NCBI GenBank assembly: GCA_963724325.1
Contig: CAVRUH010000007.1
Span: 96,001 to 160,000, forward strand
Length of the DNA: 64,000 nucleotides
Direction: 5' to 3'
Source: Waddliaceae bacterium
GTDB taxonomy: Bacteria; Chlamydiota; Chlamydiia; Chlamydiales; Waddliaceae
Positions 47,091 to 64,000 of this stretch are shown one piece after another (positions within the stretch are counted from its first letter, which is position 1; each line of letters starts with the position of its first letter). The notes under the pieces are model-generated. The model saw only the letters and a program-made list of their open reading frames with translations, was not told the origin of the DNA and did not search any database. Both the position numbers and the translations under genes were made by a program.

Positions 47091-47164
47091 GGGGCAATAG
47101 CTCAGTCGGTTAGAGCAGCGGACTCATAACCCGCGGGTCACTGGTTCAAGTCCAGTTTGCCCCA
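47091..47164 (+). tRNA. tRNA with CAU anticodon (probably tRNA-Ile2; elongator Met not excluded)
   Basis: Cloverleaf GGGGCAA/TTGCCCC, D-arm GCTC/GAGC, loop CTCATAA, T-arm ACTGG-TTCAAGT-CCAGT; resembles bacterial Ile2; CCA not encoded. Confidence 0.93.
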
Positions 47165-47779
47165 CATTTTTTTTACAGGACAAACTTATGACACTCATAG
47201 AATCCAAAATGGAATTTGCCGAAAGGAACCATGCGGTACTTCTATCCCTAGAGGCTCAGATTGTAGCGCACTATCAAAAACGTCCTCGCCTTCATGATCA
47301 CAATGTGATTCGCGTTTTAGAGGCTCTCATAAAGCACTTTAGGGCTTTAGCGACAAATTTCCCATTGCCTCAGCATTCATTATCTGAATTCGAGGGTGAA
47401 ATTTATCTTAGCATTCAATACAATCTAGAAAAATCGGAAGCCCTAACTCCGAATGATTCCTGTGTCCTTTTAAAGTTCCTCAAAAAATCTGTAGAGCTAA
47501 ACAACAAGAGATCGGGCTCACAGGGTTACTTAAACTTCATCAGCCGCTTCATCGAAGTTGAAATAGAGGATTAGAAACCCGAGTCACTCACCTTATTAAC
47601 ATTAAAATATGTGAGTTAGGCTTCCGCATTCCCTAAATGGTTATTTTCAAGAAAAACTTATTTGTTTTTACTCTTCAATAACACAATTGATTTTCAGTGA
47701 CTTATCAGCTTTAAAGCATAATCTTCACGTGTTCAAGAAGAGCCTTCGTTCGCTTCGCTCACTACGGCCAGATGCGCCC
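47123..47779 (+). repeat. ~657-bp direct repeat, copy 1 (tRNA 3' half + 128-aa gene + AT-rich arm)
   Basis: Near-identical to 55270-55927; the first ~250 bp also at 60444-60695. Confidence 0.95.
47188..47574 (+). CDS. Conserved hypothetical 128-aa helical protein (att-proximal gene, copy 1)
   Basis: AGGA RBS; KFLKKSV...GSQGYLNFISRF. Confidence 0.8.
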   Translation: MTLIESKMEFAERNHAVLLSLEAQIVAHYQKRPRLHDHNVIRVLEALIKHFRALATNFPLPQHSLSEFEGEIYLSIQYNLEKSEALTPNDSCVLLKFLKKSVELNNKRSGSQGYLNFISRFIEVEIED

Positions 47780-47819
47780 TCCCTTATTTTTTGCCTTAGC
47801 GAGCGCAGCGTGCGAAGGC
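47740..47819. repeat. Imperfect GC-rich hairpin (left arm only at ~55890-55911)
   Basis: GCCTTCGTTCGCTTCGCTCACT ... AGCGAGCGCAGCGTGCGAAGGC. Confidence 0.55.
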
Positions 47820-48035
47820 ATTTCTACACAAGAAGTCGAATTCACCAATTAGGCTCTTCGGGCAGACGACAACTGAGTAATTGATATTTTTGAACCAAAA
47901 CAATGCTCGAGAGGATATGAAAAAGACGAAACAAACACCAGCTATGATATCCTTATGAAATTAAGGAATGGATTCACTCGTAAAAATAAAATATAAGATT
48001 ACAGTAAAAAATATAAATTTAAAAAATAGGAGAAT

Positions 48036-48752
48036 TTACTCATTTGAATTTACTGCCTCAGTTTTTCCAAAGAATTGATTATATGCATCTTCGGAAACAA
48101 AAAACTGCTTCCAATATTTTTCGTTATAAAGATGGTCTTCGGAGGTTATGTTCTTACTCACTAGTTCTATTCCTGACTTATACGTGTTTTTACGGTTTTT
48201 AAGTTCGTTTTTGATTGCTGCAAGTTTAATGATCTTCTGAATAGAAATTTTTTCGATTTCATCAACAACAGATTTCCCTGAAATCTTTGAAAGTAAATCC
48301 GTTTGTTGGAAGTAAAAATTTCTATATTCTTTATGACCAGCGCTAATCGTTAAATTTAGATATACTAATGCCAAGAAAGGGTCTAGATTTTCATTAGCAT
48401 ACATTTGAGACACTTCAAATAAAGCTGGGGGATATCCCAAAGAGGCAGCCATTTTAAACTGCTGATTTGCCGCTTTCCTGTTTATTGATGTCCCAGTTCC
48501 TGATAACGAACACTGACCTGCAATATACATAGCAATCTCATCGCCATCAAGAGCAGCATCAAGAACCTTGCTAAGTTCAAATGTATCAGAAGTTTGAACG
48601 CTTTGCAGAAACTCTTCTAAGCCTTTTTTTTCTGTATTAGATAGCTGGAAACCATCTGAAAGATCGCTTTTAGGTGATTCTGAAGAATGGACAGTTGACG
48701 ATCCCAATGCCATTGCAAATACAGTCATTCCTATTGCTATAAGTTTAAACAT
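48036..48752 (-). CDS. Secreted SEL1-like repeat protein
   Basis: AAAGGAG RBS, signal peptide, AALDGD..AMY.AG...SG.G...N...A...F..AA.LG. Confidence 0.8.
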   Translation of the reverse strand: MFKLIAIGMTVFAMALGSSTVHSSESPKSDLSDGFQLSNTEKKGLEEFLQSVQTSDTFELSKVLDAALDGDEIAMYIAGQCSLSGTGTSINRKAANQQFKMAASLGYPPALFEVSQMYANENLDPFLALVYLNLTISAGHKEYRNFYFQQTDLLSKISGKSVVDEIEKISIQKIIKLAAIKNELKNRKNTYKSGIELVSKNITSEDHLYNEKYWKQFFVSEDAYNQFFGKTEAVNSNE

Positions 48753-48879
48753 ACAAGACACTCCTTTACAATTAGTTAGACTAGCATATACAAATATCAA
48801 CAAAACATCAAACTATTAAATCGTTTAATTGTTTGACTTTCTTGAATGATCATGCCAATCTTGTGGCATAAACTCAAAA

Positions 48880-49112
48880 AAAGGTGGGTCTTGGTTGTTA
48901 CAAAGCGAAAAGTATCCGGAGGCAAGCGCCGTGATACAGGGAGAAAATGCCTAGATACATTTTTAAGTTTGAAGCAAACTTGCCTTAAGCTGCATATTAA
49001 TTTTATTACATTTCTTAAAGACAGGGTGTGTGAGCAAAACGAGATTCCTCGGCTTGCTGAAATCATTCGCGGGCGTTCTTCAAAATCCCAAAAAACCACT
49101 GAGGCCACTTAG
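48880..49112 (+). pseudogene. IS66-family transposase C-terminal remnant
   Basis: VTKRKVSGG.R..TG...DTFLSLKQTC.KL.INF..FL.DR. Confidence 0.75.
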
Positions 49113-49122
49113 AACCAAACTA

Positions 49123-49380
49123 GGTCCAATTCACAGACATAGGTAACACTTTGATTCACAAACATAGGTAACACTTTTCAAAATATGGTATAATACTCTC
49201 ATCATTAACAATTTAGGGAGTATTTATGCCTTGGGAGAACTTGAAAGTGGAAAATCTTAGGTTAAAACTGATTCAATCCTTCTTGAAGGGTGAAGAGACA
49301 ATGACAGACTTATGTTTAGAGAATGGAATAAGTCGAAAAACTGGGTATAAATGGTTAGCGAGATATGAGAAATATGGGGC
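49123..49380 (+). mobile_element. IS481-family left end + transposase N-terminal fragment
   Basis: Tandem CACA(G/A)ACATAGGTAACACTTT motifs; MPWE...LC..NGISRKTGYKWLARY..YG HTH. Confidence 0.8.
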
Positions 49381-50242
49381 CACTGTGCTTATGGAATGCA
49401 ATCAATTGGAAACTTGGCTTTTTGAATCACCAGAGCCTTCTGAAACAGCATCGACTAATGCAGCACACTGCATAAAATGTTGGCGTGATTATCTTGAAAT
49501 TAAAGATGCTTACTATGGGGATTTTGAGGAGTTTGAGTTGCCTGAGCCGAAAGAGGGAGAAATTCTGCAAGATTATATCATGCGCATGGCAAGGTTGGTT
49601 GAAGAGGAAGGAAAAGGGTCTAGACTTGAGTGGCGTGCGCTCAAATCCTTTTTGGGTTACATGCGAAATTTGGCTCATGAAGAAATTGCTTTCATCGAGC
49701 AAATCTTTCCTTTTAAAATGAATATCCACGATTCAAGGATTATTCGACTGATTGAGCCGGAGGTTTACCCGATCTCACAGGCAATTGCCGCGGACATTCT
49801 CAAGGAACTGGCCAGGATGTGTAAATATGGAAGGCCGAATGCTAAGCATGGGGCTGCTGAAGCACTTGGGTTGTGCTGGTTGTGTTTATCAGCATCGCGC
49901 ATGCGATTGCCTATCACTCTCACTGATATTCATGGCACGAAAAAAACGTCAGTTTTTGCCGATGAAAAATGTGCTAAATTGCTGGTACCAACTATCTTTG
50001 GAAATAGGTCTCTAAGAATCTCGCGACGACTGGCAAAATACCTGTCAGCGCTTGCTGGGATTTCATCAATAGATCCAAGAAAAACTATTCTGCAGAGGCC
50101 TAAGAGGTCATTAATGAGAGTATTGGATAGAGCTATTGAAAATCTTAGACTCGATCCAAAATTAGGAAATATAACTTTTGTAACCTTAATTTCTTCGCCC
50201 GACATCTCGGGTGGCGATCATCGTTATGTCCGTAATTCTTAA
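49226..50242 (+). CDS. Chimeric ORF: IS481 HTH fused to a hypothetical domain with possible degenerate tyrosine-recombinase-like fold
   Basis: First ~51 aa are IS481-like; the remainder has no DDE motif. Confidence 0.55.
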   Translation: MPWENLKVENLRLKLIQSFLKGEETMTDLCLENGISRKTGYKWLARYEKYGATVLMECNQLETWLFESPEPSETASTNAAHCIKCWRDYLEIKDAYYGDFEEFELPEPKEGEILQDYIMRMARLVEEEGKGSRLEWRALKSFLGYMRNLAHEEIAFIEQIFPFKMNIHDSRIIRLIEPEVYPISQAIAADILKELARMCKYGRPNAKHGAAEALGLCWLCLSASRMRLPITLTDIHGTKKTSVFADEKCAKLLVPTIFGNRSLRISRRLAKYLSALAGISSIDPRKTILQRPKRSLMRVLDRAIENLRLDPKLGNITFVTLISSPDISGGDHRYVRNS

Positions 50243-50272
50243 TAGATAAAAAGTGTCCATCGCTGTGCCGAC

Positions 50273-50542
50273 GTGATTCGATCCATTTCATTTACAATGA
50301 GCGCAATTCCGAAATTAACAACATCAGGAGGCGCCAATGAGCGATTATCAGTATTTGGATATAAATCAAATTGTAGAGGGTGGCAATACCCCTTTTCATT
50401 AGGGCAATTACGTCACTACCTAATTATGCGGCACAAAAATAATCTTGAGATTGCAGTCCGAAAGATTGGAAAGCGGCTGTATTTGCGTAAGGATCTTTTT
50501 GAACAATGGATAGAAGATCAAAAGGAGAGGAAAAATGGATAA
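50273..50542 (+). CDS. Excisionase/AlpA-like small DNA-binding protein (start uncertain)
   Basis: YPFSLGQLRHYL..R..NNL..AVRKIGKRLYLRKDLFEQWIE. Confidence 0.65.
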   Translation: MIRSISFTMSAIPKLTTSGGANERLSVFGYKSNCRGWQYPFSLGQLRHYLIMRHKNNLEIAVRKIGKRLYLRKDLFEQWIEDQKERKNG

Positions 50543-50913
50543 TTTTCTCCTCGATGAAAAAGGTGTTTGGTTTGCGCCACCCACACATTCCCTTGGTAGA
50601 TCATCACGGAAGCAAGGGAACCCTGCAAGATTGGCAACAATATATTGCCAAATTTTGTGTGGACAATTCGCGACTTGGCTTTTGTGTAAGTGTGGGGTTT
50701 ACTTCACCCCTTCTTTATTTGTTAGGGGAAGAAAATGGAGGTTTTAACCTTCGAGGACCGAGCAGCGGAGGCAAAACAACTGCGCTAAAAGTTGGTCTCT
50801 CAACTTATGGAAGTGAAAAGATGCTCCATTCGTGGCGAGCTACATCAAACGGTCTTGAATCAATTGCGGCCCTTCACAATGATTGTCTCCAAGGAGTTGC
50901 AAGTCTTACTTAG
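50535..50913 (+). pseudogene. DUF927 (primase/helicase) fragment, frameshifted and truncated
   Basis: GTLQDWQ, GGFNLRGPSSGGKTT Walker A, SWRATSNGLE..AALHND. Confidence 0.8.
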
Positions 50914-51175
50914 GAAAAATGGATATTCTGATGCAAAGGAAATATCAGCCAAACTCATTGAGCTCTATTCCCGACAGAATCAACGCTTGGAAGAGGACAT
51001 TCAAAAGCTAATTAAGCAAAAGCTTACGAATGACACATCAAATAAACTCACCTTCATGCTTGGTTTGATCCCTACAGTGGATAACACAGACAAAGTCCTG
51101 AAATATGAGCGCTCCCTACAAAAATCGATTTTCCAGAACCTCCTTATGTTGAAAAAACTGCAAGGGGCTTTCTAG
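50890..51175 (+). pseudogene. 3' remnant of a hypothetical island gene
   Basis: No credible start; DKVLKYERSLQKSIFQNLLMLKKLQ C-terminus. Confidence 0.45.
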
Positions 51176-51277
51176 AAATGGGTCTGTTTTGGAAAAATGC
51201 AAAGTTAAAAAAACTGTCCTATGACTATGGCGACCTTCTCTAAGTGTATGGGGCAATGTCACTTGCAATTAGGAGGA

Positions 51278-52285
51278 TCAGAAGGTGCCATAGAGGTAGT
51301 TCCAATATGCCGTGAATATTTCAGACTGTTCTGAGGTCAGAGGCTCAACAATAATAAAGCTTTCATCACTGCGTGTAAATGAAGATTGTGACCAGTTTGC
51401 CGAACCATTAACCAAAATACTGTTATCGATGCACATAAGCTTATTATGCATGAAGCTTAATTTTGGGTTGACCTTAACCTCTATCCCTGCCGCCATTAGC
51501 TTTGGTAGATTTCCACCAAAATCAGGTGCTACCACCTGTACTTTTATTCCTCGTTGGTGGGCTTTAATTACTGCATTTGCAAGATCATTGTTGGTCCAAA
51601 CCATCATGGCAATATGGATGCTTGTATTCGCTTGATCGATTTTTTCAATGAGAAATTGTTTAGATTGCTCGTTGATTGACTTTTCTACTTTTTTTTGTGG
51701 AAACCCATCATGAGGCAGAAGACAAAAATAGATGTCTTGACTGAGTAGAGAAATAAGTAATGGTCCATGTTCGGTTCGGTGAGCACTTAAGCGAAATATA
51801 TCTGCTTCGTGATGAAGATATTGCGCTAACTCAGTTGAATTAAATCTTACCATTAAATTTTCTTGGGTTTGATATGCAGATGTTGTAAAGTTTGCGGATC
51901 CAATCCAAATTTCACTTTCATCTACAACCAGTATCTTGTGATGAAGATGACCTTCTCCTGTCGTCCTCGTCACAATTTCAATATTTGGCAGCTTTTTGCT
52001 TGCAATTTCACCTAAATGGTCTCTATCGATCACGACTGTGACTTTTAATCCCTCGTTTGCTTTCTGATTGAGTGCTGCGATAATTTCGGGATCAGATAGG
52101 CTGAATGTAATAATCAGAATTGATTTTTCAGCGTGAAGAATGCTTTCCTTTATCGAAACGCTTAAGTGTTTACGGTCTTGGGTATGATATAGCTGTGCGT
52201 CAGCTGCTACTGTAGCTTCAAGGCTGCCTACGCAAAATACCATAGCTGCTAATAGACTGAAAATTGATAATTTAAATTTTAACAT
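51278..52285 (-). CDS. Secreted phospholipase D / Nuc-like protein with two HKD motifs
   Basis: Signal peptide; HHKILVVD..WIGSANFT and HNKLMCID..NGSANWS. Confidence 0.9.
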   Translation of the reverse strand: MLKFKLSIFSLLAAMVFCVGSLEATVAADAQLYHTQDRKHLSVSIKESILHAEKSILIITFSLSDPEIIAALNQKANEGLKVTVVIDRDHLGEIASKKLPNIEIVTRTTGEGHLHHKILVVDESEIWIGSANFTTSAYQTQENLMVRFNSTELAQYLHHEADIFRLSAHRTEHGPLLISLLSQDIYFCLLPHDGFPQKKVEKSINEQSKQFLIEKIDQANTSIHIAMMVWTNNDLANAVIKAHQRGIKVQVVAPDFGGNLPKLMAAGIEVKVNPKLSFMHNKLMCIDNSILVNGSANWSQSSFTRSDESFIIVEPLTSEQSEIFTAYWNYLYGTF

Positions 52286-52299
52286 GGTTAACCTTCCTT

Positions 52300-53259
52300 T
52301 TAATTATTCCAAGCTTGCAATAGATTTTGTCTCAATTTATCTCTCCTCATGGGGTCGAATGTAGAAGATTTGATTAAATTGCGAAGTTCGAGCTCCCAAA
52401 TCTTAAGCTTGCCAGGCTGAATTTTTGTATAACGTTTTATGATAAGCGGTGATGTAGGATTAAGTACCCCACTAATGCCTAAAACAAGTCGCAATTCTTG
52501 TGGAAATTCATCTGAAGGAGTGTCGAGGAAATATTCACTGATCAATTGATTCTCAGCAATGAATCCATTGGGATATGATGCATACCCCACTGTATTTCCA
52601 AAAGCATATAAAGAGACAGAGCTATCAAAAAATTGCAGAAGAACGCCGGCTTTACTGTCCAGATGTTGATGTGAGATAGTATAAGCCACCTCTATCAATG
52701 ATGAGTCCATTCCAAGTTCTTCGAACATGTGTTTCAAGTCCTTTCGCTGTTGATAGGTGTCGCTACCTACATTCTTCGTAAAATTTAAGACTGAGTTTAA
52801 CCCTAGGCGGTTGTGATTCGAGTAGATGCAGAAGTTCAAGGGGAAAGTACTTTCTGCGACCAACTGCGAATAGTGTATTTCACTTACAAATACCCGTGAA
52901 AAAACTTCTAGAGATTCTAGAAAGTTGTTTTTTTTAAATGGCGTTGAAACGAAATGAAAATCCTTTCTGATGGGCACATCTAGGACCTCTTCGACAATTA
53001 TACGAATAATGTCTTGGTAAACTAGAAAATCTAAACTGTCTCCATGATATCCCATGAAGCTGATATTTTCCTGAGCTATAGCTTTATCGAATAACTCACG
53101 GTAATCTAATCCAACACCTTTTCCTTTCAGATTATACTTAATCTGATCGAGTCCAACAAATGCAACATATTGCTTTGAAGGAGATTCAAATTCAGCACCA
53201 TGGATTCTGATGGTCCCACAAATAAATAACAAGCTTAAAAGTAGGATTTTATTATTCAT
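52300..53259 (-). CDS. Secreted hypothetical protein, paralog of 53252..54274 (possible ADP-ribosyltransferase-like fold)
   Basis: Signal peptide; FMGYHGDS..YQDIIR, RKDFHF, LLQFFD, FPQELRL, LNP.SPL.I.R. Confidence 0.7.
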   Translation of the reverse strand: MNNKILLLSLLFICGTIRIHGAEFESPSKQYVAFVGLDQIKYNLKGKGVGLDYRELFDKAIAQENISFMGYHGDSLDFLVYQDIIRIIVEEVLDVPIRKDFHFVSTPFKKNNFLESLEVFSRVFVSEIHYSQLVAESTFPLNFCIYSNHNRLGLNSVLNFTKNVGSDTYQQRKDLKHMFEELGMDSSLIEVAYTISHQHLDSKAGVLLQFFDSSVSLYAFGNTVGYASYPNGFIAENQLISEYFLDTPSDEFPQELRLVLGISGVLNPTSPLIIKRYTKIQPGKLKIWELELRNLIKSSTFDPMRRDKLRQNLLQAWNN

Positions 53260-54274
53260 TTTTTTCTCTCCACATGTTCAATAACAATTCACGATACTGT
53301 ACGACTTTTGTTTCATCGTAAGGCAGTGTTCTGATTGCTTCACGTAAGTTAGATTCATACTCATTGATTAGTTCGGGATCATTCCTGTCAAAGCGCATGA
53401 TATATAGAGGGGAATACGGATTTAGAGTGACGGAGTTGTTAATGACAAGCCGGAATTGTGCAGGAAAAGCTGTAGAATTAACGCCAAGGAATATTTCGGA
53501 CATTCTTTTCTCATTGAGAATTGGACGTCCGCCGGGCAAGGCATTATAGCATAATTGATTTATCAAATCATAATGATTTTGAAATGCATTGTGATGAGAA
53601 AAGTCGAAGAATTGGAATAACACAGCATTATCCATGGTCATCAAAGGGTTGCCTATTGCAAATAAATCAGGTATCGCTTCGGTTGGTATTCCTAAAGAAT
53701 CAAATAAATAATTTAGTTGAGTTTGGAATCCAACGGTCGTTGCAGATCTATTCCTTGTAAACCAGTAGACAGTGCATTCCCCAAAGTTATCGAAATTCCC
53801 AAAGAGTGAATAATTCATCGACAACAACTGCTCTCGTTGTTCTGGTAACGCGTCAATCACTGCAGGATAGTCTTTCAGGAATTGCTCCTCACTTTCCCGA
53901 TTTAGCATAGGTTTTCCTGGGATGCGCAGAAAGTGAAAGTCTTTTCTAATATGGATCTCGCAAATTTCCTCTATTATTATCCGAATAATATCTTGATAAA
54001 TACGAAATCCTTGAGTGCTGCTATGGTATCCAAAAAAACCAAGCTCTTCGTGGGGAATGATGTGCTCGAAGAAATTGCGATGCTCCAAAGACAACCCGTT
54101 TGTCTTCAGCGCTTGCAATATTTTCTCGTAATTGTAAAATCCGCAAAAGCGATTTGTTGGGGATGCATATACGGCTTCGGTTCGAATCGGCATATCGAAA
54201 TCTACGATTGCCGGAGTGGCAAGCAATGATAAATTACAAAGTGCAATTAAAATAAATAAAATTAATCTAATCAT
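53252..54274 (-). CDS. Secreted hypothetical protein, paralog of 52300..53259 (possible ADP-ribosyltransferase-like fold)
   Basis: Signal peptide; FFGYHSS..YQDIIR, RKDFHF, SMNYSLFGN..GECT, FPAQFRL. Confidence 0.7.
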   Translation of the reverse strand: MIRLILFILIALCNLSLLATPAIVDFDMPIRTEAVYASPTNRFCGFYNYEKILQALKTNGLSLEHRNFFEHIIPHEELGFFGYHSSTQGFRIYQDIIRIIIEEICEIHIRKDFHFLRIPGKPMLNRESEEQFLKDYPAVIDALPEQREQLLSMNYSLFGNFDNFGECTVYWFTRNRSATTVGFQTQLNYLFDSLGIPTEAIPDLFAIGNPLMTMDNAVLFQFFDFSHHNAFQNHYDLINQLCYNALPGGRPILNEKRMSEIFLGVNSTAFPAQFRLVINNSVTLNPYSPLYIMRFDRNDPELINEYESNLREAIRTLPYDETKVVQYRELLLNMWREKNE

Positions 54275-54425
54275 AATTATTTAACCAATATATTTAAGAT
54301 GAATACATTTTAACAATTATCAATTTATAAGTCAATCATAAACATGCATTTTTATATCGATTTGAATGGACCAATGCAATATGCTTTGTGGGGATAAGTC
54401 TAAATTCAACCATAAAGGAGAAATT

Positions 54426-55019
54426 ATGTTGAACAGTTTTATCCGAAAGTTTTTATTTATCATTGTTCTTACGACATCGCTGTCATCCCCTATTTTTGCT
54501 GTGGATGACTTTCAAGTTGAGTATCAACCACAGGTCATCGAAAAAGTAATTCAGTTTGAGAAGAAAAGCATCTTAAAGCAAAAAGCAAATGGATACCTAT
54601 ATGTCGAAGTGTCTCGAGATTTTATTGCCGAGGCTCTTCCTCTAATTGATGCCCCGGGAAAAATTGTACACCCGAGTCATTATACTAGCAAGAAAGGGAT
54701 TGGAGCCCATATCAGCATTATTTATGAAAATGAGTTGATTGAACATGAAATCTGGGAGATCGATGAGTTGGGGCAAGAGTTCACATTCTCGGTCATGGAG
54801 TTGAGGACGGTAAAACTAAATGACAATAACAAGATGAAAAAACTTTGGCTTTTGGCAGTAGCTGCTCCCGAGTTAGAGAAACTTCGTGAGGGTTATGGTC
54901 TATCATCCCGTTTAAAAAACCATGATTTCCATATAACAATAGGAACTCAAGTACCTGGTAAAGTCTATGTTTTATTCGATGAGATAATCATTGAAGAGGA
55001 GCTGGAAGAAGCAGCATAA
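54426..55019 (+). CDS. Secreted 2H phosphoesterase-family protein
   Basis: AAAGGAG RBS; signal peptide; two Hx(S/T)x motifs GAHISII and DFHITIG. Confidence 0.75.
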   Translation: MLNSFIRKFLFIIVLTTSLSSPIFAVDDFQVEYQPQVIEKVIQFEKKSILKQKANGYLYVEVSRDFIAEALPLIDAPGKIVHPSHYTSKKGIGAHISIIYENELIEHEIWEIDELGQEFTFSVMELRTVKLNDNNKMKKLWLLAVAAPELEKLREGYGLSSRLKNHDFHITIGTQVPGKVYVLFDEIIIEEELEEAA

Positions 55020-55133
55020 GGCTGATTCCAAAGATAAAATCGATTTGGTAGCCTAACAACAGGGGATTCGAATGCCTCTTTTGTGCTTTTGCTCAACTTC
55101 AGTTTAAGCACGACTTTCACAACTATCCTTCGC

Positions 55134-55311
55134 GTTGCAATGGCGGTGCAATGATTTACCTATTTATCCAATAATATCCATCAGAAACCAGTTGCAATTT
55201 GATTGCATATCCTTTAGCATGTTACTCATAGCGGTTGGATGGTGTTGATTGGAGTGGAAGTCCCCCTCCCTCATAACCCGCGGGTCACTGGTTCAAGTCC
55301 AGTTTGCCCCA
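55134..55311 (+). other. attP-like junction between islands A and B (arm + tRNA 3' half 55270-55311)
   Basis: tRNA identity starts exactly at the 7-nt anticodon loop CTCATAA; upstream 48 bp match 60396-60443 at 42/48; GTGCA-type short repeats. Confidence 0.85.
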
Positions 55312-55927
55312 CATTTTTTTTACAGGACAAACTTATGACACTCATAGAATCCAAAATGGAATTTGCCGAAAGGAACCATGCTATACTTCTCTCACTGGAG
55401 GCTCAGATTGTAGCGCACTATCAAAAACGTCCTCGCCTTCATGATCACAATGTGATTCGCGTTTTAGAGGCTCTCATAAAGCACTTTAGGGCTTTAGCGA
55501 CAAATTTTCCATTGCCTCAGCATTCATTATCTGAATTCGAGGGTGAAATTTATCTTAGCATTCAATACAATCTAGAAAAAACGGAAGCCCTAACTCCGAA
55601 TGATTCCTGTGTCCTTTTAAAGTTCCTCAAAAAATCTGTAGAGCTAAACAACAAGAGATCGGGCTCACAGGGTTACTTAAACTTCATCAGCCGCTTCATC
55701 GAAGTTGAAATAGAGGATTAGAAACTGGAGTCACTCACCTTATTCACATTAAAATATGTGAGTTAGGCCCTCCGCGTACCCTCAATGGTTATTTTCAAGA
55801 AAAACTTATTTGTTTTTACTCTTCAATAATGCAATTGATTTTCAGTGACTTATCAGCTTTAAAGCATAATCTTCACGTGTTCAAGAAGAGCCTTCGTTCG
55901 CTTCGCTCACTACGGCCAGATGCGCCC
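55270..55927 (+). repeat. ~657-bp direct repeat, copy 2
   Basis: Near-identical to 47123-47779. Confidence 0.95.
55335..55721 (+). CDS. Conserved hypothetical 128-aa protein (copy 2)
   Basis: Two aa differences from 47188..47574 (V17I and S->T in EKSE/EKTE). Confidence 0.8.
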   Translation: MTLIESKMEFAERNHAILLSLEAQIVAHYQKRPRLHDHNVIRVLEALIKHFRALATNFPLPQHSLSEFEGEIYLSIQYNLEKTEALTPNDSCVLLKFLKKSVELNNKRSGSQGYLNFISRFIEVEIED

Positions 55928-56042
55928 GGCGTTATTAAAGTAGACCCAACTGTCTAGCTAAAAAGAGGAACATTTATTATTATGTGAAAGTTTGCGAAGT
56001 AATACCGAAAAATAATGTTCTCCATTGAGATTAGAGAGATTA

Positions 56043-56369
56043 TCACAAGACAAACTCGATAATTAGACAAAAAGTGTAGACCATTCCTAAAAAGAGTAGT
56101 GGCAGCAAGTGATAAAGTAGAAAAACAGGCAGGGAGGGATCATGGAGATGCTTCCACCCTTTATAGATTCCAAAAGGTGATGAGAGTGGCGATAGAAGTG
56201 TAATAATTATGAAAGTCATTATCGTTTTTGGATAATCAAGTTCATAATCCGCAAATCCCATGGGTAGAATCCATGTAATAAGTAGCAATAGGATAAAAAG
56301 AAATATGTTTAGGACGGTGAAACCTCTTGCAAGATAAAGCCTGATACTAGCCTTTTCTATAAATTCCAT
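56043..56369 (-). CDS. Hypothetical three-TM membrane protein
   Basis: AAGGA RBS; three hydrophobic segments. Confidence 0.55.
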   Translation of the reverse strand: MEFIEKASIRLYLARGFTVLNIFLFILLLLITWILPMGFADYELDYPKTIMTFIIITLLSPLSSPFGIYKGWKHLHDPSLPVFLLYHLLPLLFLGMVYTFCLIIEFVL

Positions 56370-56538
56370 CTATTAATTCCTTTAAGGTTCTCTGATACTG
56401 CGGATCGTCAAATCCATGCTGTGGACCCGAACTCTTTTGCTGATAGATTATCCGAGTATTCCTAAGTTCTTCAAGCCTTTTTTTATATCCATTGAATTTT
56501 TCCTTCTTATAGATTTCGTACTCTACTCCACTAAACAT
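56347..56538 (-). CDS. Short hypothetical protein or gene fragment
   Basis: AGGAG upstream; lies in a co-oriented three-ORF run. Confidence 0.35.
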   Translation of the reverse strand: MFSGVEYEIYKKEKFNGYKKRLEELRNTRIIYQQKSSGPQHGFDDPQYQRTLKELIDGIYRKG

Positions 56539-56577
56539 AAGAATTGCTCCTAGAAGTTGTTTTAAAAATATATTTTG

Positions 56578-57852
56578 TTATCTAATGTGAAAAGAAGATA
56601 CTAACTTATTCCATTCTTCGGAAATTTGTGGAGTTTCGCTATTAAAAGATTGAGTAATTTGATAGAGTCTTCTTTTTTTGAGCACAAACAATGTTCTATA
56701 AATTTTACCTGAATTTTCTGCTAGAAGCTCAATAGAGGGACAACCTTCATGCTCGCCTAAGTTCCAAGATAAAACAATCATTTTATTGCTCAATCCGAGC
56801 CAAGCTAGATCAATGGAACCGTTTTTATCCATTTGACTTTGAATCTCGTTTATCAGCATAGAGATTGAAGGGTCAGAATATTCAAGAATAATTTCGCTAA
56901 ACATCGTCATATTTAAAACTTTCAGCTCAGGGTCTTCAAAATCTGGGTGATTAATCTCTTTTAGAATACCCATATAAGTAACCATTGGTAAAGTGACAAT
57001 GGATTCGATAAAATAGCCGCTGTCACCATACTCTCCAAATAAAGTCTTGGGAGCGAAAGGCCCAAGTCTAGAATAGAAAATTCTGTGATAAATGTTATAT
57101 TTTGGAGGAATATTAATGTCATAAGTGTTCCGACCCAATAAGATATTGCGTTGTACAGTTTCACAAAACAAATTTGCCCACAAAAGTTTATGCCAATCAT
57201 AGTTGAGAATGCTTTGATACTGTCGGTATGATTCTGTAGTAGTTATCCAAGAAGGAATCATTGTGTTTTGAGATTCAATTTTAAATCCTAAATGATATGC
57301 GGGTGTTCCCGAAAAAGCTGGATATATTCCCCATGCAGAAGCTAAATAGAAGATATTTTGAATTTCTAGGCGATATACGAATTGATTTATAGCAACAAGG
57401 AGTCCACGCCGTTCAGATAAATTTCGAAAATTTACGCTAAAATTTGTGGCGCTATTATCGCAATAATACACAGACTCTTTGCCATAAACATGTCCTTTTT
57501 TAAAATAGGAAAAGCCGTCGTTTTCAATTTTATTTAAAAGATCATCCATCCAACTTTTATATTTTACTGAGTCATTTGCTATTGAATTTGGAAGTTTATA
57601 AATCCAAACTTTAAAAGGACCCATGTGTGTTTCACTATAATAATGGGTGATTTCCACATTTTCTTCATGATAGCTTTCCATTCTAGTAGCATCCCAAGTG
57701 TGAAGAGTAATGCGATGATCTTTTGGCCCTGGAATTTCTATTGTATATCCCTTGTTAAGCGATAGAAGCCCCATCAAGTCTATTGCTATTCCCCCAGATA
57801 AAGACCCAAAATGCACCAAAATAAAAAATGAGTATATTAATTTTTTCATCAT
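56578..57852 (-). CDS. Hypothetical exported protein
   Basis: 424 aa, N-terminal signal-like segment; C-terminal beta-rich end (YQIT...SSFHIR). Confidence 0.65.
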   Translation of the reverse strand: MMKKLIYSFFILVHFGSLSGGIAIDLMGLLSLNKGYTIEIPGPKDHRITLHTWDATRMESYHEENVEITHYYSETHMGPFKVWIYKLPNSIANDSVKYKSWMDDLLNKIENDGFSYFKKGHVYGKESVYYCDNSATNFSVNFRNLSERRGLLVAINQFVYRLEIQNIFYLASAWGIYPAFSGTPAYHLGFKIESQNTMIPSWITTTESYRQYQSILNYDWHKLLWANLFCETVQRNILLGRNTYDINIPPKYNIYHRIFYSRLGPFAPKTLFGEYGDSGYFIESIVTLPMVTYMGILKEINHPDFEDPELKVLNMTMFSEIILEYSDPSISMLINEIQSQMDKNGSIDLAWLGLSNKMIVLSWNLGEHEGCPSIELLAENSGKIYRTLFVLKKRRLYQITQSFNSETPQISEEWNKLVSSFHIR

Positions 57853-57995
57853 AATGTCAATTATTTTACAGTAATTGTTCTAATAGTGCAACTAAAAAGA
57901 CGAGCTAACGGCAATTAGGAGTTTGTTAAATAAAAGATCAAAAATAGAATAGGGTGATTTTGGCCCCAGAAATATTTTTTTTGAGCTCCAAACTG

Positions 57996-58265
57996 ATTTG
58001 AGTTTTTGATCAGCTGATAAAATATTTCAGGGCAAAAGCAACTAATTTTCCATTCCAAGAGTCTAAATTTTCTTTGCCTATTGAAAATGATTTATATGAT
58101 TCGCTTAAGGAATGTCTTGAGGAAACTGAAGGCAAAACAGCTAATGAAGCATATAACATTTTTAAATTCTTAAAAAAATCAGTCGAATTTTGGAACAGAG
58201 AAGGGGGCTCTCAAGGCTGCCTTACATATATATCGCGCTTCATAGATGTTGAAGAAAAAAAATGA
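57996..58265 (+). pseudogene. 5'-truncated diverged paralog of the 128-aa att-proximal gene
   Basis: I*VFDQLIKYFRAKATNFP...KFLKKSVEFWNREGGSQGCLTYISRFIDVE aligns to IRVLEALIKHFRALATNFP...KFLKKSVELNNKRSGSQGYLNFISRFIEVE. Confidence 0.85.
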
Positions 58266-58545
58266 TGGGACCCGGGCGTGAAAAACTGACATTTTAAAGT
58301 AAGCATACGCGTATTAAAAGTAAGCGCATATGCACGCCCGACCCCAATCATTTCTAAAGTTATCTTCGATGCCCCTGGCAACATCTTTAGGGTCATCAGG
58401 GTCAATCTAAATAAAAAAAATCTTAATATGTATCCTACTTAAAAATTTAAAAAATCCTCCCAATTTAACCCCCCCTTGTTTTCAATGCAAAATCAGATAG
58501 AAAAATTTTAATTCAAGGGTTTATGTCTATTTTGTTGGCTAGGGA

Positions 58546-58585
58546 TTACAGTGCGACACCTACAGCGTAATCTACAGCGTAATCT
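58546..58585. repeat. Tandem 12-bp repeats CTACAGCGTAAT x2 (+1 degenerate); integrase arm-site-like
   Basis: 58560-58571 and 58572-58583. Confidence 0.55.
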
Positions 58586-58647
58586 CCATAAGTCTGCAGA
58601 AGTAGTTTCCACGAATAGTACCATCACAGAGAGGTGTTACCCATACC

Positions 58648-59409
58648 TTAGACAATAATTAATTCTAGAAATGATTTTTGGTGAGCTTTGGGACGCAAAT
58701 AGGGTTCCTTTTTTGTATGAACAACGATTGCGTAGAGAATTCCTGCTTCCGCAAGAGCTATTGCTTCTTTTTTAAGAAGCCACACACTGTCCTCATGTGA
58801 ATTACCAACTAAAAATTCAGTAATGACATGTCGTTTATTGACTCGAACTCCCTGAACTTTCTTTACATCAATATATTCCTCACGTCCCTCTCTCCATCCT
58901 TCATGTTTTTTCATAGCATCAAGCAATTGTTCATATTCTTTGTCGTTTAGGGAACGAATCGTGCGATCCATATCAAATTTAGTAAAAAATTTAATCGCTT
59001 TTCGATAGTTAATGACTTCTTCTGTATCGGGTTGTCCCTTTTTGACACCAGTGTAAGTACGTACAAATTCATTGAGGGTGCAATCAATATACATATTGCC
59101 TTCTTTTAAACGTAAGGCCTGTGCCCTTCTACCAGTTTCATAATCAGGATAAACTGCAAACCTATAATCTTTGTTTTCTTTATTAGGTATCTTCCCAGCG
59201 GAACCGATAGCTCCGTTCCTTTTTGCGAAATCTCCCATTGCGTGATTACCAGGATTATTATTTCTCCATGATCTAGTACTTGCTTGATCCACTGGCTGTT
59301 CTGGATAGGCTTTCCAAAAGCGCTTTAAATGATTCCCATCTTCATCATAATAGATGACCGAATTTTCTGGCCCTTCTACAACTTTTATCCATTTATTTTG
59401 AGTCTTCAT
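58648..59409 (-). CDS. Lysozyme-like (RNNNPGN motif) protein with DUF3892-like C-terminus
   Basis: RSWRNNNPGN, FAVYPDYETGRRA, AMKKHEG; C-terminal WL.KKEAI.LAE.G...VH....YLR. Confidence 0.7.
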   Translation of the reverse strand: MKTQNKWIKVVEGPENSVIYYDEDGNHLKRFWKAYPEQPVDQASTRSWRNNNPGNHAMGDFAKRNGAIGSAGKIPNKENKDYRFAVYPDYETGRRAQALRLKEGNMYIDCTLNEFVRTYTGVKKGQPDTEEVINYRKAIKFFTKFDMDRTIRSLNDKEYEQLLDAMKKHEGWREGREEYIDVKKVQGVRVNKRHVITEFLVGNSHEDSVWLLKKEAIALAEAGILYAIVVHTKKEPYLRPKAHQKSFLELIIV

Positions 59410-59577
59410 ACATTTACTTCAGGTTTAATCAACAAAATAGAATAAATTATAAATTATTAATTTTAAATAACTTGTCTACGAATTATAGCAGATTAGGAGA
59501 AATTTTTCTAATCAAAAATAAATGGTTCAAAATGGTCCCCTTTTGGTAATATCGCCTCTTCTTGGTAGGGAGAAATT

Positions 59578-60273
59578 ATGGTTGATGCAAAACGTATTAA
59601 CAGAAATGGTGCATGGATTTCTTTTTCTATAGCTCACAGCCTCCTTATTTTTTTGGGAATACTCGTTGTTGGGTGTGAAAAAAACGGTGAGATTGACGTA
59701 GATGATCTCAATTCTGAGAAAAATATTTTTATTAGTAGGGTTCTTGATGCAGAGCTAGGCGAGGGACCTTTTTTTATAAACTATTCGTTGAGTACAGTCT
59801 TTTTTTCACAAGATATTGTAAGCATCTTTGGAGAATTCACACGTTATACAGACTTCCCACATGATCGTAAGCATTATGAAGGAAAAACATTTTGTAGAAT
59901 AAATGGAAAATTCCAATTAATATCTTTCGATGATCTTTTTTCTGCTGAAAAGCAAAAAGAATTTATCAGAAAGTATTGTGAGGATGTTCTCAAGGCTAAG
60001 TCTATAGGCTATTTTGGTGAGGATCCACCTCTTCGCGATCAACTTGATTTAAAGGAAATTCAAACATTTTTAATTCATGAAAATTTTTTTATCATCGTAT
60101 TCCAACGTTATATTGTAGCCGGTCTTGACGATTATCCGACAACATTACGAATTCCTTACAATATTTTGAAGGGTCATATTAATCCAAACATTCCTTTGAT
60201 CACACTCTTAGAAAAAACAGTAAAATCAAATTCTTTTATTTCTTCTTGGGAAGATGTTTTGGGTGGTTCGTAG
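59578..60273 (+). CDS. Lipoprotein, RsiV/DUF3298-like
   Basis: Lipobox LVVGC; YT..PH, ISFDDLF, F.I....F.I.F..Y.VA......L.IPY. Confidence 0.6.
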   Translation: MVDAKRINRNGAWISFSIAHSLLIFLGILVVGCEKNGEIDVDDLNSEKNIFISRVLDAELGEGPFFINYSLSTVFFSQDIVSIFGEFTRYTDFPHDRKHYEGKTFCRINGKFQLISFDDLFSAEKQKEFIRKYCEDVLKAKSIGYFGEDPPLRDQLDLKEIQTFLIHENFFIIVFQRYIVAGLDDYPTTLRIPYNILKGHINPNIPLITLLEKTVKSNSFISSWEDVLGGS

Positions 60274-60308
60274 ACACACACGAAGCCTCTCTTTTTATTG
60301 CATTTCCC

Positions 60309-60485
60309 GTGCACTGGCGGTGCAACGGTGCAGTACTTTATCCATTTTCAACCGTCAAAATTCGGTAGCAATAAATACATAAGTCATTTATTATCTTACT
60401 CAAAGCGGTTGAGTGGTGTTGATTGGAGTGGTAGTCTTCCTCCCTCATAACCCGCGGGTCACTGGTTCAAGTCCAGTTTGCCCCA
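60309..60485 (+). other. attP-like junction between islands B and C (arm + tRNA 3' half 60444-60485)
   Basis: Third copy of CTCATAACCCGC...TTGCCCCA; GTGCA repeats; TAAGTCATTT IHF-like site. Confidence 0.85.
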
Positions 60486-60507
60486 CATTTTTTTACAGGA
60501 CAAACTT

Positions 60508-60695
60508 ATGACACTAATAGAATCCAAAATGGAATTTGCCGAAAGGAATCCTGCAATACTTCTCTCCCTAGAGGCTCAGATTGTAACGCACTATCAAAAA
60601 CGTCCTCGCCTTCATGATCACGATGTGATTCGCGTTTTAGAGGCTCTCATAAAGCACTTTAAGGCCTTAGCGACAAATTTCCCATTGCCTCAGCA
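60508..60695 (+). pseudogene. 128-aa gene copy 3, truncated by an IS481 end
   Basis: Identity to copy 1 stops after CCTCAGCA at 60695. Confidence 0.88.
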
Positions 60696-61467
60696 GGTGC
60701 GGTTACAGACATAGGTTACACTTTTATTGTTAAAATGTTATATAAAAAGCAGGGGGCAACTAGCCCCCTGCCAAAAAAACATCCGTCACCCATCGTCTCT
60801 CGGTCGCAGCGGGGAGTTTTCTTCTTGGTACCAATAATTATACTATGTATGGTCAAAAGATGCATTAGGAAAATACACAAGAAAACATCTAGAATTTTGA
60901 GTTTTGAGGGAGCTGTGGGGGTTTCTTCTTGGTCGGGGGTTTGGGGGCTGGCCCCCAATATATTCACTTCCGATCGTTGTCATTAGCGCTGCCTCCTTCT
61001 CTTAACTTTTGGTTTTTCAAGCCCTTCCTTTACAAGTTTTCCTAAGTATATAGGTCCATAATAAACATCATATTCCCCCTGTTCATTAGCCTTAAGACCA
61101 ACATATTCTCCAGTAAGCGTTTGTCCAATATAATGATCATTCTGATGTAACCATAAACAACCACTTGCACAAATCTTTCTAACAATCATTTTTTGTGTGT
61201 CGTATTCTGGTTTCCTTAAAACTCCATCCCAAGTCCGTAAGGATTTAGTATAAACACTTGCTGGTGTTTGCATATTCAAGGCTTCATGAGGCCTTTCAAA
61301 GTTATATTCGTCTAAGAATTTGCTGTTCGCTTGTATTTGCAATACAAGGGATGCTTTAGCAGGGTTTGCTACTTCTTGTTGTAGTGTAGAATGGAATCTC
61401 TCGTGCCTTCCATTTTCCTCAGGATGTCCTGGATTTATCCACTCAGGGATAACTCCAGCTTTAATTA
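60696..61467 (-). mobile_element. IS481-family remnant (transposase C-terminal half + right end)
   Basis: PGHPEENGRHERFHSTL, YNFERPHEALNMQTPASVY; end motif ACAGACATAGGTTACAC matches 49133-49149. Confidence 0.85.
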
Positions 61468-61781
61468 GATTGGCGTGATTTAGTCGGAATAGCAACGTAG
61501 ACAAAGTGAGGGATTTGTGTGGTGATTTCGTGATAAGCCAAAGCAGAGATCAGGCATATAATTCCGTTAGGAATTTTTTTCAAAACAAGAACAAGATCAG
61601 GCTAGGAAAAGTCTGGGATTTCAATTAGCCCATAGACTCCTCTAGCTAATTGTTCCAAGAGCCCCTCATCTCACATCTGATATAGTGTGCGTGGGTGAAT
61701 GCCCAATTGGATAGCTTCACCCGAGCGGAGGAGTCCCTGGTGTGATTTAAAGTGCTTGATCGCTATCTGTTTTGCATTCAT
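61468..61781 (-). pseudogene. Type IV TA AbiEi-family antitoxin pseudogene (two internal stops, truncated)
   Basis: Manual translation MNAKQIA...GIHPRTLYQM*DEGLLEQLARGVY...FS*PDL...GIICLISALAYHEITTQIPHFVYVAIP. Confidence 0.85.
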
Positions 61782-61871: not shown

Positions 61872-62650
61872 TTAAAGTTCTAAAAGCTTTTTCATAGTTT
61901 TTTCAAAATGAAGCTTACGTAGCCTGCCAGAGGGGTCTTGCGCTTCCAATTTAACCCAGTCATTTGGAGAGGCATTGTCAAGCCAGATTCGTAGATTTTT
62001 CTGAAGAGTTTTAAACCATTTCGGATGCTGTTTTGCCAATACGTTGAATTCAATTAGAGCCCGATCAGAAAAATCGCCTAATTGGGAAGTGACATACCAA
62101 ATACCATAAAGATCCTTAAGAATCTTTAAAGCACTTTTGCGTTTCGTAAAAGTAAGCCCCTTATGGAATATCCAAGCACCTGGTGTAACTACATTTCCTG
62201 CAATGTTTGAGTGGGTATGAAACTTTATGGTTGTCTGCAAGCTTAAGGTTAAATAGCTTAGCGGTTGGGCAACCACACCAGCAATGACGACATTTTTATT
62301 TTTGTTTTCCTGACTAGAGTCATCCGTCAAAAATTCAATTTCAATTTCAGCGCCTGCAATTTCCTTCACATAGGCTTCTGTCGCAGGATCTCTAAATCTT
62401 TAAAAACATGATTGAAACCTGCTTCTCGAAGATAATTTTGAATGTTCTTTTTCGAAATTTGTGGGATTTTCCTTGGAATAAGAGAATCGATATCTCTTGT
62501 TCCTACTGGAGGGTTCTTTAATTTTGGATCAGCTAGATAAAGCTTGTAGATAAAGAGTGCAAATCCACCTCCAATGACGATAAAATCTCGCCATGGACCA
62601 ATAGATTCTAAAAATTCTGAAATGATTTTGTCTTCTTGATTAGATGTCAT
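61872..62650 (-). pseudogene. Nucleotidyltransferase toxin (AbiEii/GSU2403-like), split by a frameshift near 62388
   Basis: VIGGGFA...TRDID NTase motif in 62366..62650; continues PATEAYVKEI...HKGL....KDL in 61872..62369. Confidence 0.8.
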
Positions 62651-63379
62651 GACGATTTACCACTTTTATAAATACGCTTAAGCTCTGGAAGACGTTCTGC
62701 CATAAATTCTGCTTGTTCTTGTCCACGTAAAGGAAAGTGATATAAATCCAAAAAAGTCAAAATAGAAGGAGAGACATTGATATCTAGATTTGAGTCAGAA
62801 GCATGCTTAAGCAAGCTTTTGTAGTAAGGTTCTATAAGCAAAACTTCATAGCCTCTTTCTTGAGGTTCTAATAGTAGCTTTTTCTCAAGTTGTGGTCTAA
62901 CCAAAGGATCAAGCAGGTATAGTTCAAGAGTGTTTAAGTTGGTGTTTTTATATCCATGCGCTTCAGCAGCAGAATGAAGAGCCAATGCTACCTTATTGCT
63001 TAGATTTGACTTTTTAATTGCCTCTAAAAGCTCTGCTTTATCTTGGAACCCAGAACGATAAGTTCTCATTTTGCATTTTTTTACGATGCTGTAATGTTCT
63101 AGCCAGCTTTCAAGAAGGCGTTTGGGATCTTTCAAGAAAAACTTTTTGGCGGTTCTTATTCCTTCGGCTTGCAAAATTCCTTTTAAAACTAAAGTCCCAA
63201 AGACGCGTTGTACTGATCCAAGACTTACCCCAGCTTCTTTAGACACATTTCGCACGGATAACTCTCGACTCTTTGATGCCTTCTCTCAGCAACCAATCAA
63301 GAACCACGGCAGATTTGTCCGAATAGATATTCCCTTCCACAGGTTTTTCATTCGAGCCTATCAAAAACCGACCTTCCAT
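62647..63379 (-). pseudogene. AbiEi-like winged-helix antitoxin, frameshift near 63270
   Basis: AAGGAGG RBS + ATG 63379 (MEGRFLIG...IYSDKSAVVLDWLL) shifts into RELSVRNVSKEAGVSLGSV HTH; C-terminal VSP.LTFLDL....RGQEQAE. Confidence 0.8.
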
Positions 63380-63392
63380 ACGACCTCCTTAT

Positions 63393-63448
63393 CTGTTCAT
63401 TATTTTATACTGTTCAATATTTATGGAACAGTATAAAATATGGAACAG
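63393..63448. promoter_or_regulatory. 23-bp inverted repeat, probable AbiEi autorepression operator
   Basis: CTGTTCATTATTTTATACTGTTC / GAACAGTATAAAATATGGAACAG (21/23). Confidence 0.7.
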
Positions 63449-63490
63449 CGAATATTAACGTAAAAAGTTTAAAGAAACAAGGAGAGTCTA

Positions 63491-64000
63491 ATGACGAACA
63501 CAACAAATTCTTCAAGTCAAAAACAAATCAGAATGCCAGTACCTGTCGATTCCTTAATCACCATTCTACATAATATACAATTGAAAATTGATTCAGCTGC
63601 TGGCGCTGCAACAGCGCTAGAGCTCCGGCTGCGAATTATCGCTCAGATAGAAGAGAAAGTTCGAGATGAACTAAAGAAAAATACAAAAGACCCTTTTCAT
63701 CAGGCAACTCTTAAACATCTCATTTCAGCAGTCCTTGAGGTATTTCAAGATAAACTTGATGCAACCGAGCAAAGTATAATAAAACAATGCCGCCCCCCTC
63801 GCAATAAAACTGCGCATGGCAGCTTTGCTGAGTTAATGATCGAACTGGCAGGGGAGGCTTCTGGTAGACAGCTTGATAATCGCACATTGAAACCATTACC
63901 TTTAGCAGAAGATGATATAATTGAAGGAGCAATATGCATTGAGAGAAATGGTGGTTTAGAGGATTTTTCAAAACTTGCAAACCGTGCAGTATCAATTCTT
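63491..64000 (+). CDS. HEPN-domain-like protein (3' end outside window)
   Basis: AAGGAG RBS; open to the window end; ATALELRLR and RNKTAHG (Rx4H) motifs. Confidence 0.65.
   Translation, partial: MTNTTNSSSQKQIRMPVPVDSLITILHNIQLKIDSAAGAATALELRLRIIAQIEEKVRDELKKNTKDPFHQATLKHLISAVLEVFQDKLDATEQSIIKQCRPPRNKTAHGSFAELMIELAGEASGRQLDNRTLKPLPLAEDDIIEGAICIERNGGLEDFSKLANRAVSIL

Follow-up and report, generated by a model that had tools for sequence, protein, structure and literature searches.

In the accretion model built around ICESt1 and ICESt3, as PMC5704250 outlines it, units that are bounded by attachment (att) sites and lack integration and transfer genes, the cis-mobilizable elements (CIMEs), are stacked at the 3′ end of a target gene. 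We describe an array of this known kind, an integrase-less stack at a tRNA gene, in 64,000 nucleotides (nt) of Waddliaceae bacterium assembly GCA_963724325.1 (contig CAVRUH010000007.1, positions 96,001 to 160,000 of the forward strand), a stretch that we call the window and whose numbering we use unless a contig is named. Cassettes are lined up here behind a tRNA-Met gene, and the repeated attachment arm contains ORF128, an open reading frame (ORF) of 128 codons that lies directly behind the tRNA. As in the systems of PMC5704250, a complete target gene (here the tRNA) stands at one end and its 3′ part is repeated at the joints; the units are bounded by attL and attR and have lost their integration and transfer genes, and integrase-bearing relatives are found at the same site, which agrees with the definition of a CIME given in that source. 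Unlike the CIMEs outlined there, the array has a 666-nt arm in which an entire conserved gene stands where the integrase would be; its one tRNA site is shared by left arms of three classes, and its host belongs to an obligate-intracellular-type, chlamydia-like lineage. The novelty lies in the 666-nt arm that bears a gene and in its recurrence in at least two other sources, in the chlamydia-like host and in the unnamed family of helical proteins; at the level of abstracts, the literature on chlamydial islands yielded no description of a tRNA-Met array, and gene-bearing attachment arms were not searched for.

Elements that bring a replacement for the 3′ end of their target gene include the islands and phages that insert into tRNA genes with crossover in the anticodon loop, and e14 and phage 21 in icd. 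The element's copy restores the gene and the displaced original remains as a partial copy at the far junction, as is also seen here; the difference is that in this array the replaced stretch does not stop with the target gene but takes in the following gene with its tail.

A repeated attachment arm that carries a gene

The tRNA-Met gene (anticodon CAT) is the sole tRNA that ARAGORN finds in the window. It closes a compact plus-strand string of genes with Pfam matches to NAPRTase, isochorismatase and DUF167, and an ORF near it matches the chlamydial CT021 family, also in Pfam. By repeat finding and alignment, the unit repeated behind this tRNA is far longer than ORF128: it spans 666 nt (47123 to 47788), its left limit lies in the anticodon loop at 47123 (CTCATAACC), and the repeats are far beyond chance (Table 1). 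Junctions 2 and 3, at which module copies 2 and 3 begin, are preceded by a common left (P) arm of about 60 nt, and the enclosing 111-nt repeat (55210-55320) is 91% identical between the two. Beyond the module and this left arm, repeat finding shows nothing in common between cassettes 1 and 2, and pairwise scores give no similarity between the module tail and any left arm.

The array continues for about 10 kb past the window, with three further tRNA-Met 3′ halves (contig positions 160302-160347, 167917-167961 and 169527-169562; L008:305, 7919 and 9533). All five partial tRNA copies begin at CTCATAACC in the anticodon loop, and the row as a whole has one complete tRNA at its end and direct repeats of the tRNA 3′ part at its joints. 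Pairwise scores divide the left arms into three classes: class A at junctions 2 and 3, a second class at junctions 4 and 5, and a third at junction 6.

The original prediction, made from the letters of the window, had ORF128 in the attachment arm of every cassette. This proved too broad: across six junctions the gene is intact at two, truncated at one and present at junction 5 as a short stub of its start only, and junctions 4 and 6 lack it, so that its state outward from the tRNA reads intact, intact, truncated, stub. Alignment did bear out the copies that had been listed, namely intact genes at 47188 and 55335, a truncated one at 60508 and a diverged, 5′-truncated paralog at about 57993-58265. 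It also bore out the placement of the first three just after the tRNA end, the ATG lying 22 nt past it in copies 1 and 2 and 21 nt past it in copy 3, which has one T fewer. An AGGA stands 7 nt 5′ of the ATG and is preceded by T8 in copy 1. These four are the only ORF128 matches in the 2.37-Mb assembly, which is 84.6% complete.

The two intact copies encode proteins of 98% identity (P0001 and P0002). Their ORFs have seven differences in 387 nt, of which five are synonymous and two are the conservative changes V17I and S83T; the tails have 13 differences in 214 nt, and the 65 nt upstream of ORF128 have none. Small as these numbers are, the pattern would fit purifying selection on ORF128. In copy 3, similarity is lost after 60695, at codon 62/63, and a 42-nt stretch beside this break recurs on contig C1. 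The remnant of an insertion sequence (IS) that lies beyond the break comprises, at 60983-61504 on the minus strand, the C-terminal third of an IS481-type transposase (rve_3 / IS481 C-terminal match). A TGA marks the 5′ edge of the fragment inside cassette 2, in front of which no tRNA half is recognisable. The fragment is 62% identical to P0007, a homolog from another source, and since it groups with P0007 in the tree, two ORF128 lineages coexist in the array.

Contigs from four soil-metagenome runs match both module copies, copy-specific sites and junction 2 (55181-55331) with zero mismatches, and we conclude from these matches that the two copies are not an assembly artefact, noting that the runs may include the source sample of the assembly. 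These contigs are scattered pieces of 151-206 nt, with no joints among them, and are silent on excision either way. At the right end of module copy 1 lies a GC-rich imperfect palindrome with a predicted DNA fold of -23 kcal/mol (z -3.8); its right arm recurs on contig C1 as an inverted pair (787326-787419), and module copy 2 retains its left arm only. This structure could mark a recombination breakpoint or represent a small palindromic repeat element.

Scans of the plus strand from the upstream genes through the tRNA to ORF128 detected no terminator-like or promoter-like site; nothing in the promoter scan was above shuffles, and the sole plus-strand site lies inside ORF128. Two features had been listed for the module tails. 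The CTCAC/GTGAG dyad is present after copy 1 (6-nt arms at 47586-47591 and 47611-47616, a 19-nt loop and no T-run), but it is not above chance, and the terminator scan gave no plus-strand match near it. Sites for integration host factor (IHF) were not borne out, the exact consensus being absent from both tails and matching 10 times in the window against 8.8 expected.

Table 1. Positions of the array components in the window, with the evidence for each
Feature	Coordinates	Strand	Evidence or description
Complete tRNA-Met, anticodon CAT; anchor of the array	47091..47165	+	ARAGORN
Module copy 1: tRNA 3′ half from the anticodon loop, spacer with AGGA, ORF128, 214-nt tail	47123..47788	+	Repeat finding and alignment
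ORF128 copy 1, intact, P0001, 128 amino acids (aa)	47188..47574	+	ORF list, profile search, AlphaFold2 model
GC-rich imperfect palindrome straddling the right end of module copy 1	47736..47825		33-nt arms, 79% complementary
Cassette 1 cargo: decayed island backbone and nuclease-type genes	47789..55209		Pfam, NCBIfam, PADLOC, tblastn
Left (P) arm, class A, junction 2	55210..55269	+	Repeat finding
Module copy 2	55270..55936	+	647/667 aligned columns identical to copy 1
ORF128 copy 2, intact, P0002	55335..55721	+	Alignment to copy 1
Cassette 2 cargo: ORFs without family matches	55937..60383		Pfam, NCBIfam, PADLOC
5′-truncated fragment of the second ORF128 lineage, inside cassette 2	57993..58265	+	49% identity to P0001, residues 39-125
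Left (P) arm, class A, junction 3	60384..60442	+	Repeat finding, alignment
Module copy 3: tRNA 3′ half and ORF128 codons 1-62 (ORF128 begins at 60508), cut off	60443..60695	+	Alignment
Unrelated DNA and degenerate IS481-family transposase end at the copy 3 break	60696..61504	-	rve_3 / IS481 match

The ORF128 family and its genomic settings

A search with the single ORF128 sequence recovered four close proteins only. Exhaustive profile searching extended the family to 778 representative clusters at E<=1e-3 and 402 at E<=1e-10, mostly of about 130 aa and with the motifs DVLQNIE, CEWRLGR and CLKRIxKSVxxWNKxxGRQGYLxF; the chlamydial subgroup is without the middle insert of the family. Members carry the name 'hypothetical protein' in their sources, and four of them (P0106, P0107, P0117 and P0136) have N-terminal extensions without a Pfam match. 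Pfam, NCBIfam and PADLOC contain no match for ORF128, Pfam on 22 homologs reports only one fused TPR, and the ESM Atlas gives no usable match for P0001 or P0013. With PHROGs, 52 family members returned two unnamed families (one of 52 each, E about 7e-4) and ORF128 itself returned none, and the proposal of a defence role gained nothing from either defence or phage libraries.

The AlphaFold2 model made with an alignment has six helices, with a predicted local distance difference test score (pLDDT) of 92.1 and a predicted template modelling score (pTM) of 0.84. Foldseek against PDB finds nothing at E<=0.001 (best E 0.62). Of the best matches in two other searches, cystatin, from the PDB sequence-profile search, is noise at E 0.067, and a designed minibinder (best VIA Z 7.1 over 64 residues) is within noise for helical bundles. 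We conclude that ORF128 is a real gene because it has 778 homologs with conserved motifs, a model pLDDT of 92.1 and mostly synonymous differences between its copies; its product is predicted to be a soluble six-helix protein of an undescribed family.

To place the family in its genomic settings we confirmed 235 genome loci in a search with a 10-row alignment and kept 80 for context analysis. The 235 loci cover many phyla, and the 80 include Planctomycetota, Chloroflexota, Hydrogenedentota, Smithella, Nostoc/Anabaena, Ignavibacteria and Acidobacteriota. In most members of this wider family there is no link to tRNAs, integrases, viruses or plasmids. A tRNA of any kind lies within 4 kb at 5 of the 80 loci and directly upstream at one (L057, tRNA-Arg), and the 145 nearest-neighbour ORFs include no integrase or recombinase, one transposase fragment and 12 toxin-antitoxin-type genes, and are mostly housekeeping genes (for example polyprenyl synthetase at five Anaerolineae loci). 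Viral contigs, searched with two pattern sets, yielded no relative, and 2 of 72,556 plasmids hold one, none matching P0001 itself. The five Anaerolineae loci (L039, L064, L066, L067 and L089) have a long open frame upstream, of about 150 extra residues, and always face the polyprenyl synthetase, which is a conserved chromosomal setting of one clade.

Homologs are present in 11 of 400 other Chlamydiota genomes. No tRNA-Met half lies near these 11, local-alignment scores being at most 23 compared with 78 for the metagenome contig L100 described below. The regions upstream of the homologs at L125 and L126 are faintly tRNA-like, with no ARAGORN or Rfam match. At L125 (genome G249), about 60-190 nt upstream of the homolog, there is a stretch of about 125 nt whose ends pair like an acceptor stem and which has a T-arm-like motif and then a T-run; it is possibly a degenerate tRNA-like element.

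Within a chlamydial subgroup, by contrast with the wider family, the linkage to tRNA-Met half-sites is seen again, on sequence evidence, in two further sources. L100 carries a tRNA-Met 3′ half, a 78-nt leader, a homolog 39% identical to ORF128 and then a 5′-truncated tandem duplicate; a second tRNA half on the same contig is followed by the same leader and an internally deleted homolog copy. In L103, a contig of that sample, one more tRNA half precedes this leader, and behind it the gene begins at the contig end. The other source is P0007, which is 51% identical to ORF128 and has a 29-residue N-terminal extension that is almost identical to frame 2 of the class-A arm and tRNA half at junction 2; because the extension appears to translate arm and tRNA half, the P0007 gene would lie directly behind a class-A junction. 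Two details of L100 are noted in their own right: the 891-nt unit between its two tRNA-Met halves (L100:6508-7500) holds only the homolog and its truncated duplicate, and the duplicate starts around residue 36-39, about where the cassette 2 fragment starts. The expectation that homologs would be associated with attachment sites is therefore upheld for the close subgroup (L100/L103 and P0007) but not for the wider family, and the proposed gene-neighbourhood check gave the same division, with members of the close subgroup beside tRNA-Met halves and the family otherwise mostly in chromosomal settings.

We compared the locus with seven other genomes of the same family. All seven have tRNA-Met, most with additional 3′ halves, and none holds an ORF128 homolog despite sharing this hot spot; a check of island-free relatives, which the original prediction had called for, likewise found none with ORF128 behind tRNA-Met. 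A query of class-A arm plus tRNA half matches G001, G003 and G007 at 75-82%, and in G007 the terminal tRNA half sits behind a class-A left arm. Three of the genomes (G003, G006 and G007) have a tyrosine integrase within about 0.2-1 kb of tRNA-Met or a half of it, which in G006 is a protein of 367 aa with Phage_integrase and Int_N domains. After the integrase, G006 and G007 have a DUF3987 protein (with a RepB-primase domain in G006) and restriction-type defence cargo, and then a tRNA half. G001, of the same genus as our genome, has integrase-less units of 1.6 and 2.2 kb between tRNA halves. An integrase thus adjoins the tRNA-side junction in G003, G006 and G007 and not in the array studied here, where the ORF128 module occupies the position held by the integrase in the related islands. 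None of the 21 cassette ORFs in the window or of the 19 ORFs in the next 20 kb matches PF00589, and tblastn with three island integrases (two from relatives and one from contig C1) detected no integrase remnant in the array.

Probable accretion of islands and alternative origins of the module

We favour, with a probability of roughly 0.6, the explanation that the array is a stack of decayed, CIME-like islands whose tRNA-proximal arm consists of the tRNA 3′ half together with the gene behind it. The tRNA-Met gene would be an integration hot spot at which tyrosine integrases cross over in the anticodon loop, and islands would pile up there one behind another and decay to integrase-less, CIME-like cassettes. 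One element lineage would have an unusually long tRNA-side arm made of a replacement tRNA 3′ half, ORF128 and the 214-nt tail, and in the circular form of this element the module would adjoin the core, on the side that integration places behind the 5′ half of the tRNA. Each arrival would place a fresh tRNA half and ORF128 behind the tRNA 5′ half and push the older copy outward, and the displaced outer copies would decay, leaving one cut by an IS, one fragment and one short stub. Conservative site-specific recombination cannot duplicate flanking DNA, and for that reason each element would have carried the module at integration.

The long replacement arm would renew not only the tRNA 3′ half but also the next gene of the same transcription unit. 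ORF128 may be tied to the tRNA transcription unit and carried along with it, such that integration does not sever upstream transcription; an element without ORF128 would leave the resident copy cut off from that transcription. It is in these terms that we infer co-transcription with the tRNA, a selective reason for carrying ORF128 and the order of events. We think that ORF128 is a cellular-type accessory gene and not a recombination or defence factor, because the widespread family is otherwise an ordinary chromosomal gene, and capture of chromosomal DNA into attP, which was among the options first put forward, is a live one.

A number of observations weigh against accretion of gene-bearing islands as we have drawn it. 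No integrase for the tRNA-Met site is found in the assembly (84.6% complete), so that mobility is a historical inference. Copy 2 is intact though it is not tRNA-proximal, and it has a co-directional upstream gene of its own (54366-55019), so that position need not set expression. Island-free relatives with ORF128 behind tRNA-Met were not found, and with 0 of 7 same-family genomes holding a homolog the idea that the arm restores a host operon is without direct support. Gene conversion between the repeats could produce the same pattern as purifying selection. L100 and L103 possibly come from one organism, and the context of P0007 is deduced from the protein alone. In the weakly resolved tree, the att-linked genes lie in two separate clades, with L100 nested among L099, L101 and L102, which are not att-linked, and this split requires two captures or several losses.

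Among the alternatives, ORF128 might have a dedicated function for the element, as an accessory or directionality factor for an integrase acting in trans or in exclusion or defence, and so enable cassettes to be captured and stacked. Its location exactly at the integrase position of related islands agrees with this, as do the recurrence of the half-site linkage in two other sources at only 39-51% protein identity, the L100 unit of 891 nt that contains nothing but a homolog and its truncated duplicate, and a substitution pattern that suggests selection. Directionality factors of the Xis type are, like ORF128, small proteins encoded beside an attachment site. ORF128, however, is predicted to be an all-helical bundle without a structural relative, has a predicted isoelectric point of 6.3, matches no Xis or helix-turn-helix (HTH) family in Pfam and has no integrase beside it, and its homologs mostly have plain chromosomal settings. 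The family at large is unlinked to mobile DNA (no integrase among 145 neighbours, a tRNA directly upstream at 1 of 80 loci), was not found in viral contigs with two pattern sets and is present on 2 of 72,556 plasmids; Pfam, NCBIfam and PADLOC have no match for ORF128, PHROGs offers only two unnamed families at 1 of 52 each, and the hot spot is also in use in same-family genomes that lack ORF128. We regard an element function as unlikely. A fuller version of it would make tRNA-Met an integron-like capture platform, at which integrase-less cassettes are docked by integrases acting in trans, the ORF128 protein acts as a docking or retention factor or as an immunity marker, the tRNA unit drives the newest copy only and position sets expression. 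Integron arrays are also rows of small cassettes with accessory or defence-type cargo, in which distance from a fixed promoter could set expression. An integron, though, has IntI and attI beside attC-bounded cassettes, and here neither IntI nor attI nor attC is present and the array is without a recombinase; tRNA halves, with left arms specific to the element, form the joints in place of attC hairpins, and many cassette genes face the opposite way. We give this version very little credence.

The copies could also have arisen as passive segmental duplications, through homologous recombination or unequal crossing-over among the repeated tRNA halves, with a gene unrelated to att function. Direct repeats of 666 nt and 97% identity are good RecA substrates, and the right end of the module lies within a palindromic repeat element. 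Unequal crossing-over would nevertheless copy cargo too, and cassettes 1 and 2 share only the module and the left arm; the anticodon loop is the left limit of every repeat; and a second lineage of 49% identity and independent arrays carry the same arrangement. Passive duplication therefore seems quite improbable to us. The lack of a family name in any library might suggest that ORF128 is an open frame that arose by chance in repeated, non-coding att DNA, but this is refuted by the 778 homologs with conserved motifs across phyla, the pLDDT of 92.1 and the predominance of synonymous differences.

The genomes of amoeba-associated-type chlamydiae are usually seen as closed to gene flow. The array shows that such genomes keep an active-looking tRNA-Met docking site, with at least three arm classes and with nuclease, toxin-antitoxin and accessory cargo, and it has an unusual attachment arm that bears a whole conserved gene. 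It lends itself to a natural test of whether selection on integrative elements goes beyond restoring the target gene and extends to mending the transcription units that they interrupt, and the unnamed family, with 778 clusters in many phyla, a confident fold and no structural relative, is a clean target for structural and functional work.

Cassette cargo and recombinases of the assembly

Four tyrosine recombinases are encoded in the assembly, all away from the array. One locus, L106 (contig C1:65603-69085), has a 356-aa integrase that is 44% identical to the integrase of a relative's tRNA-Met island and lies beside tRNA-Lys and tRNA-Glu, an arrangement that points to a second island of this family, inserted at a different tRNA.

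In cassette 1, the ORF at 49226-50242 is 40% identical to the integrase-adjacent gene of the G007 island. It is followed at 50273-51175 by three overlapping ORFs in different frames, each with part of a DUF927 / Cch1-like replicative helicase; this is an island-backbone gene reduced to a pseudogene by frameshifts. A nuclease of phospholipase D (PLD)/NucT/DrmC-like type is encoded at 51278-52285 on the minus strand, and a 2H-SAK phosphoesterase at 54366-55019, co-directional with and upstream of ORF128 copy 2. The interval 51278-55019 as a whole consists of the two-domain PLD nuclease and then same-strand ORFs of 319 and 340 aa without a family, beside the 2H-SAK gene, and is possibly an undescribed defence module. 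For cassette 2, the 424-aa ORF at 56578-57852 was considered as a counterpart of the integrase-adjacent gene of G006 and proved unrelated; the genes directly before junctions 2 and 3 were likewise found to be unrelated to each other.

Behind the IS remnant, the region 61872-64000 contains a nucleotidyltransferase-like ORF (61872-62369), an AbiEi-like antitoxin (62647-63255) and a Swt1-like HEPN ORF that runs off the window end, and by these sequence matches it is cargo of predicted toxin-antitoxin type. Past the window, the cargo includes an HTH-SocA/Panacea protein, GNAT and NUDIX proteins, a Cass2 (integron-associated effector-binding) protein and an SDR protein.

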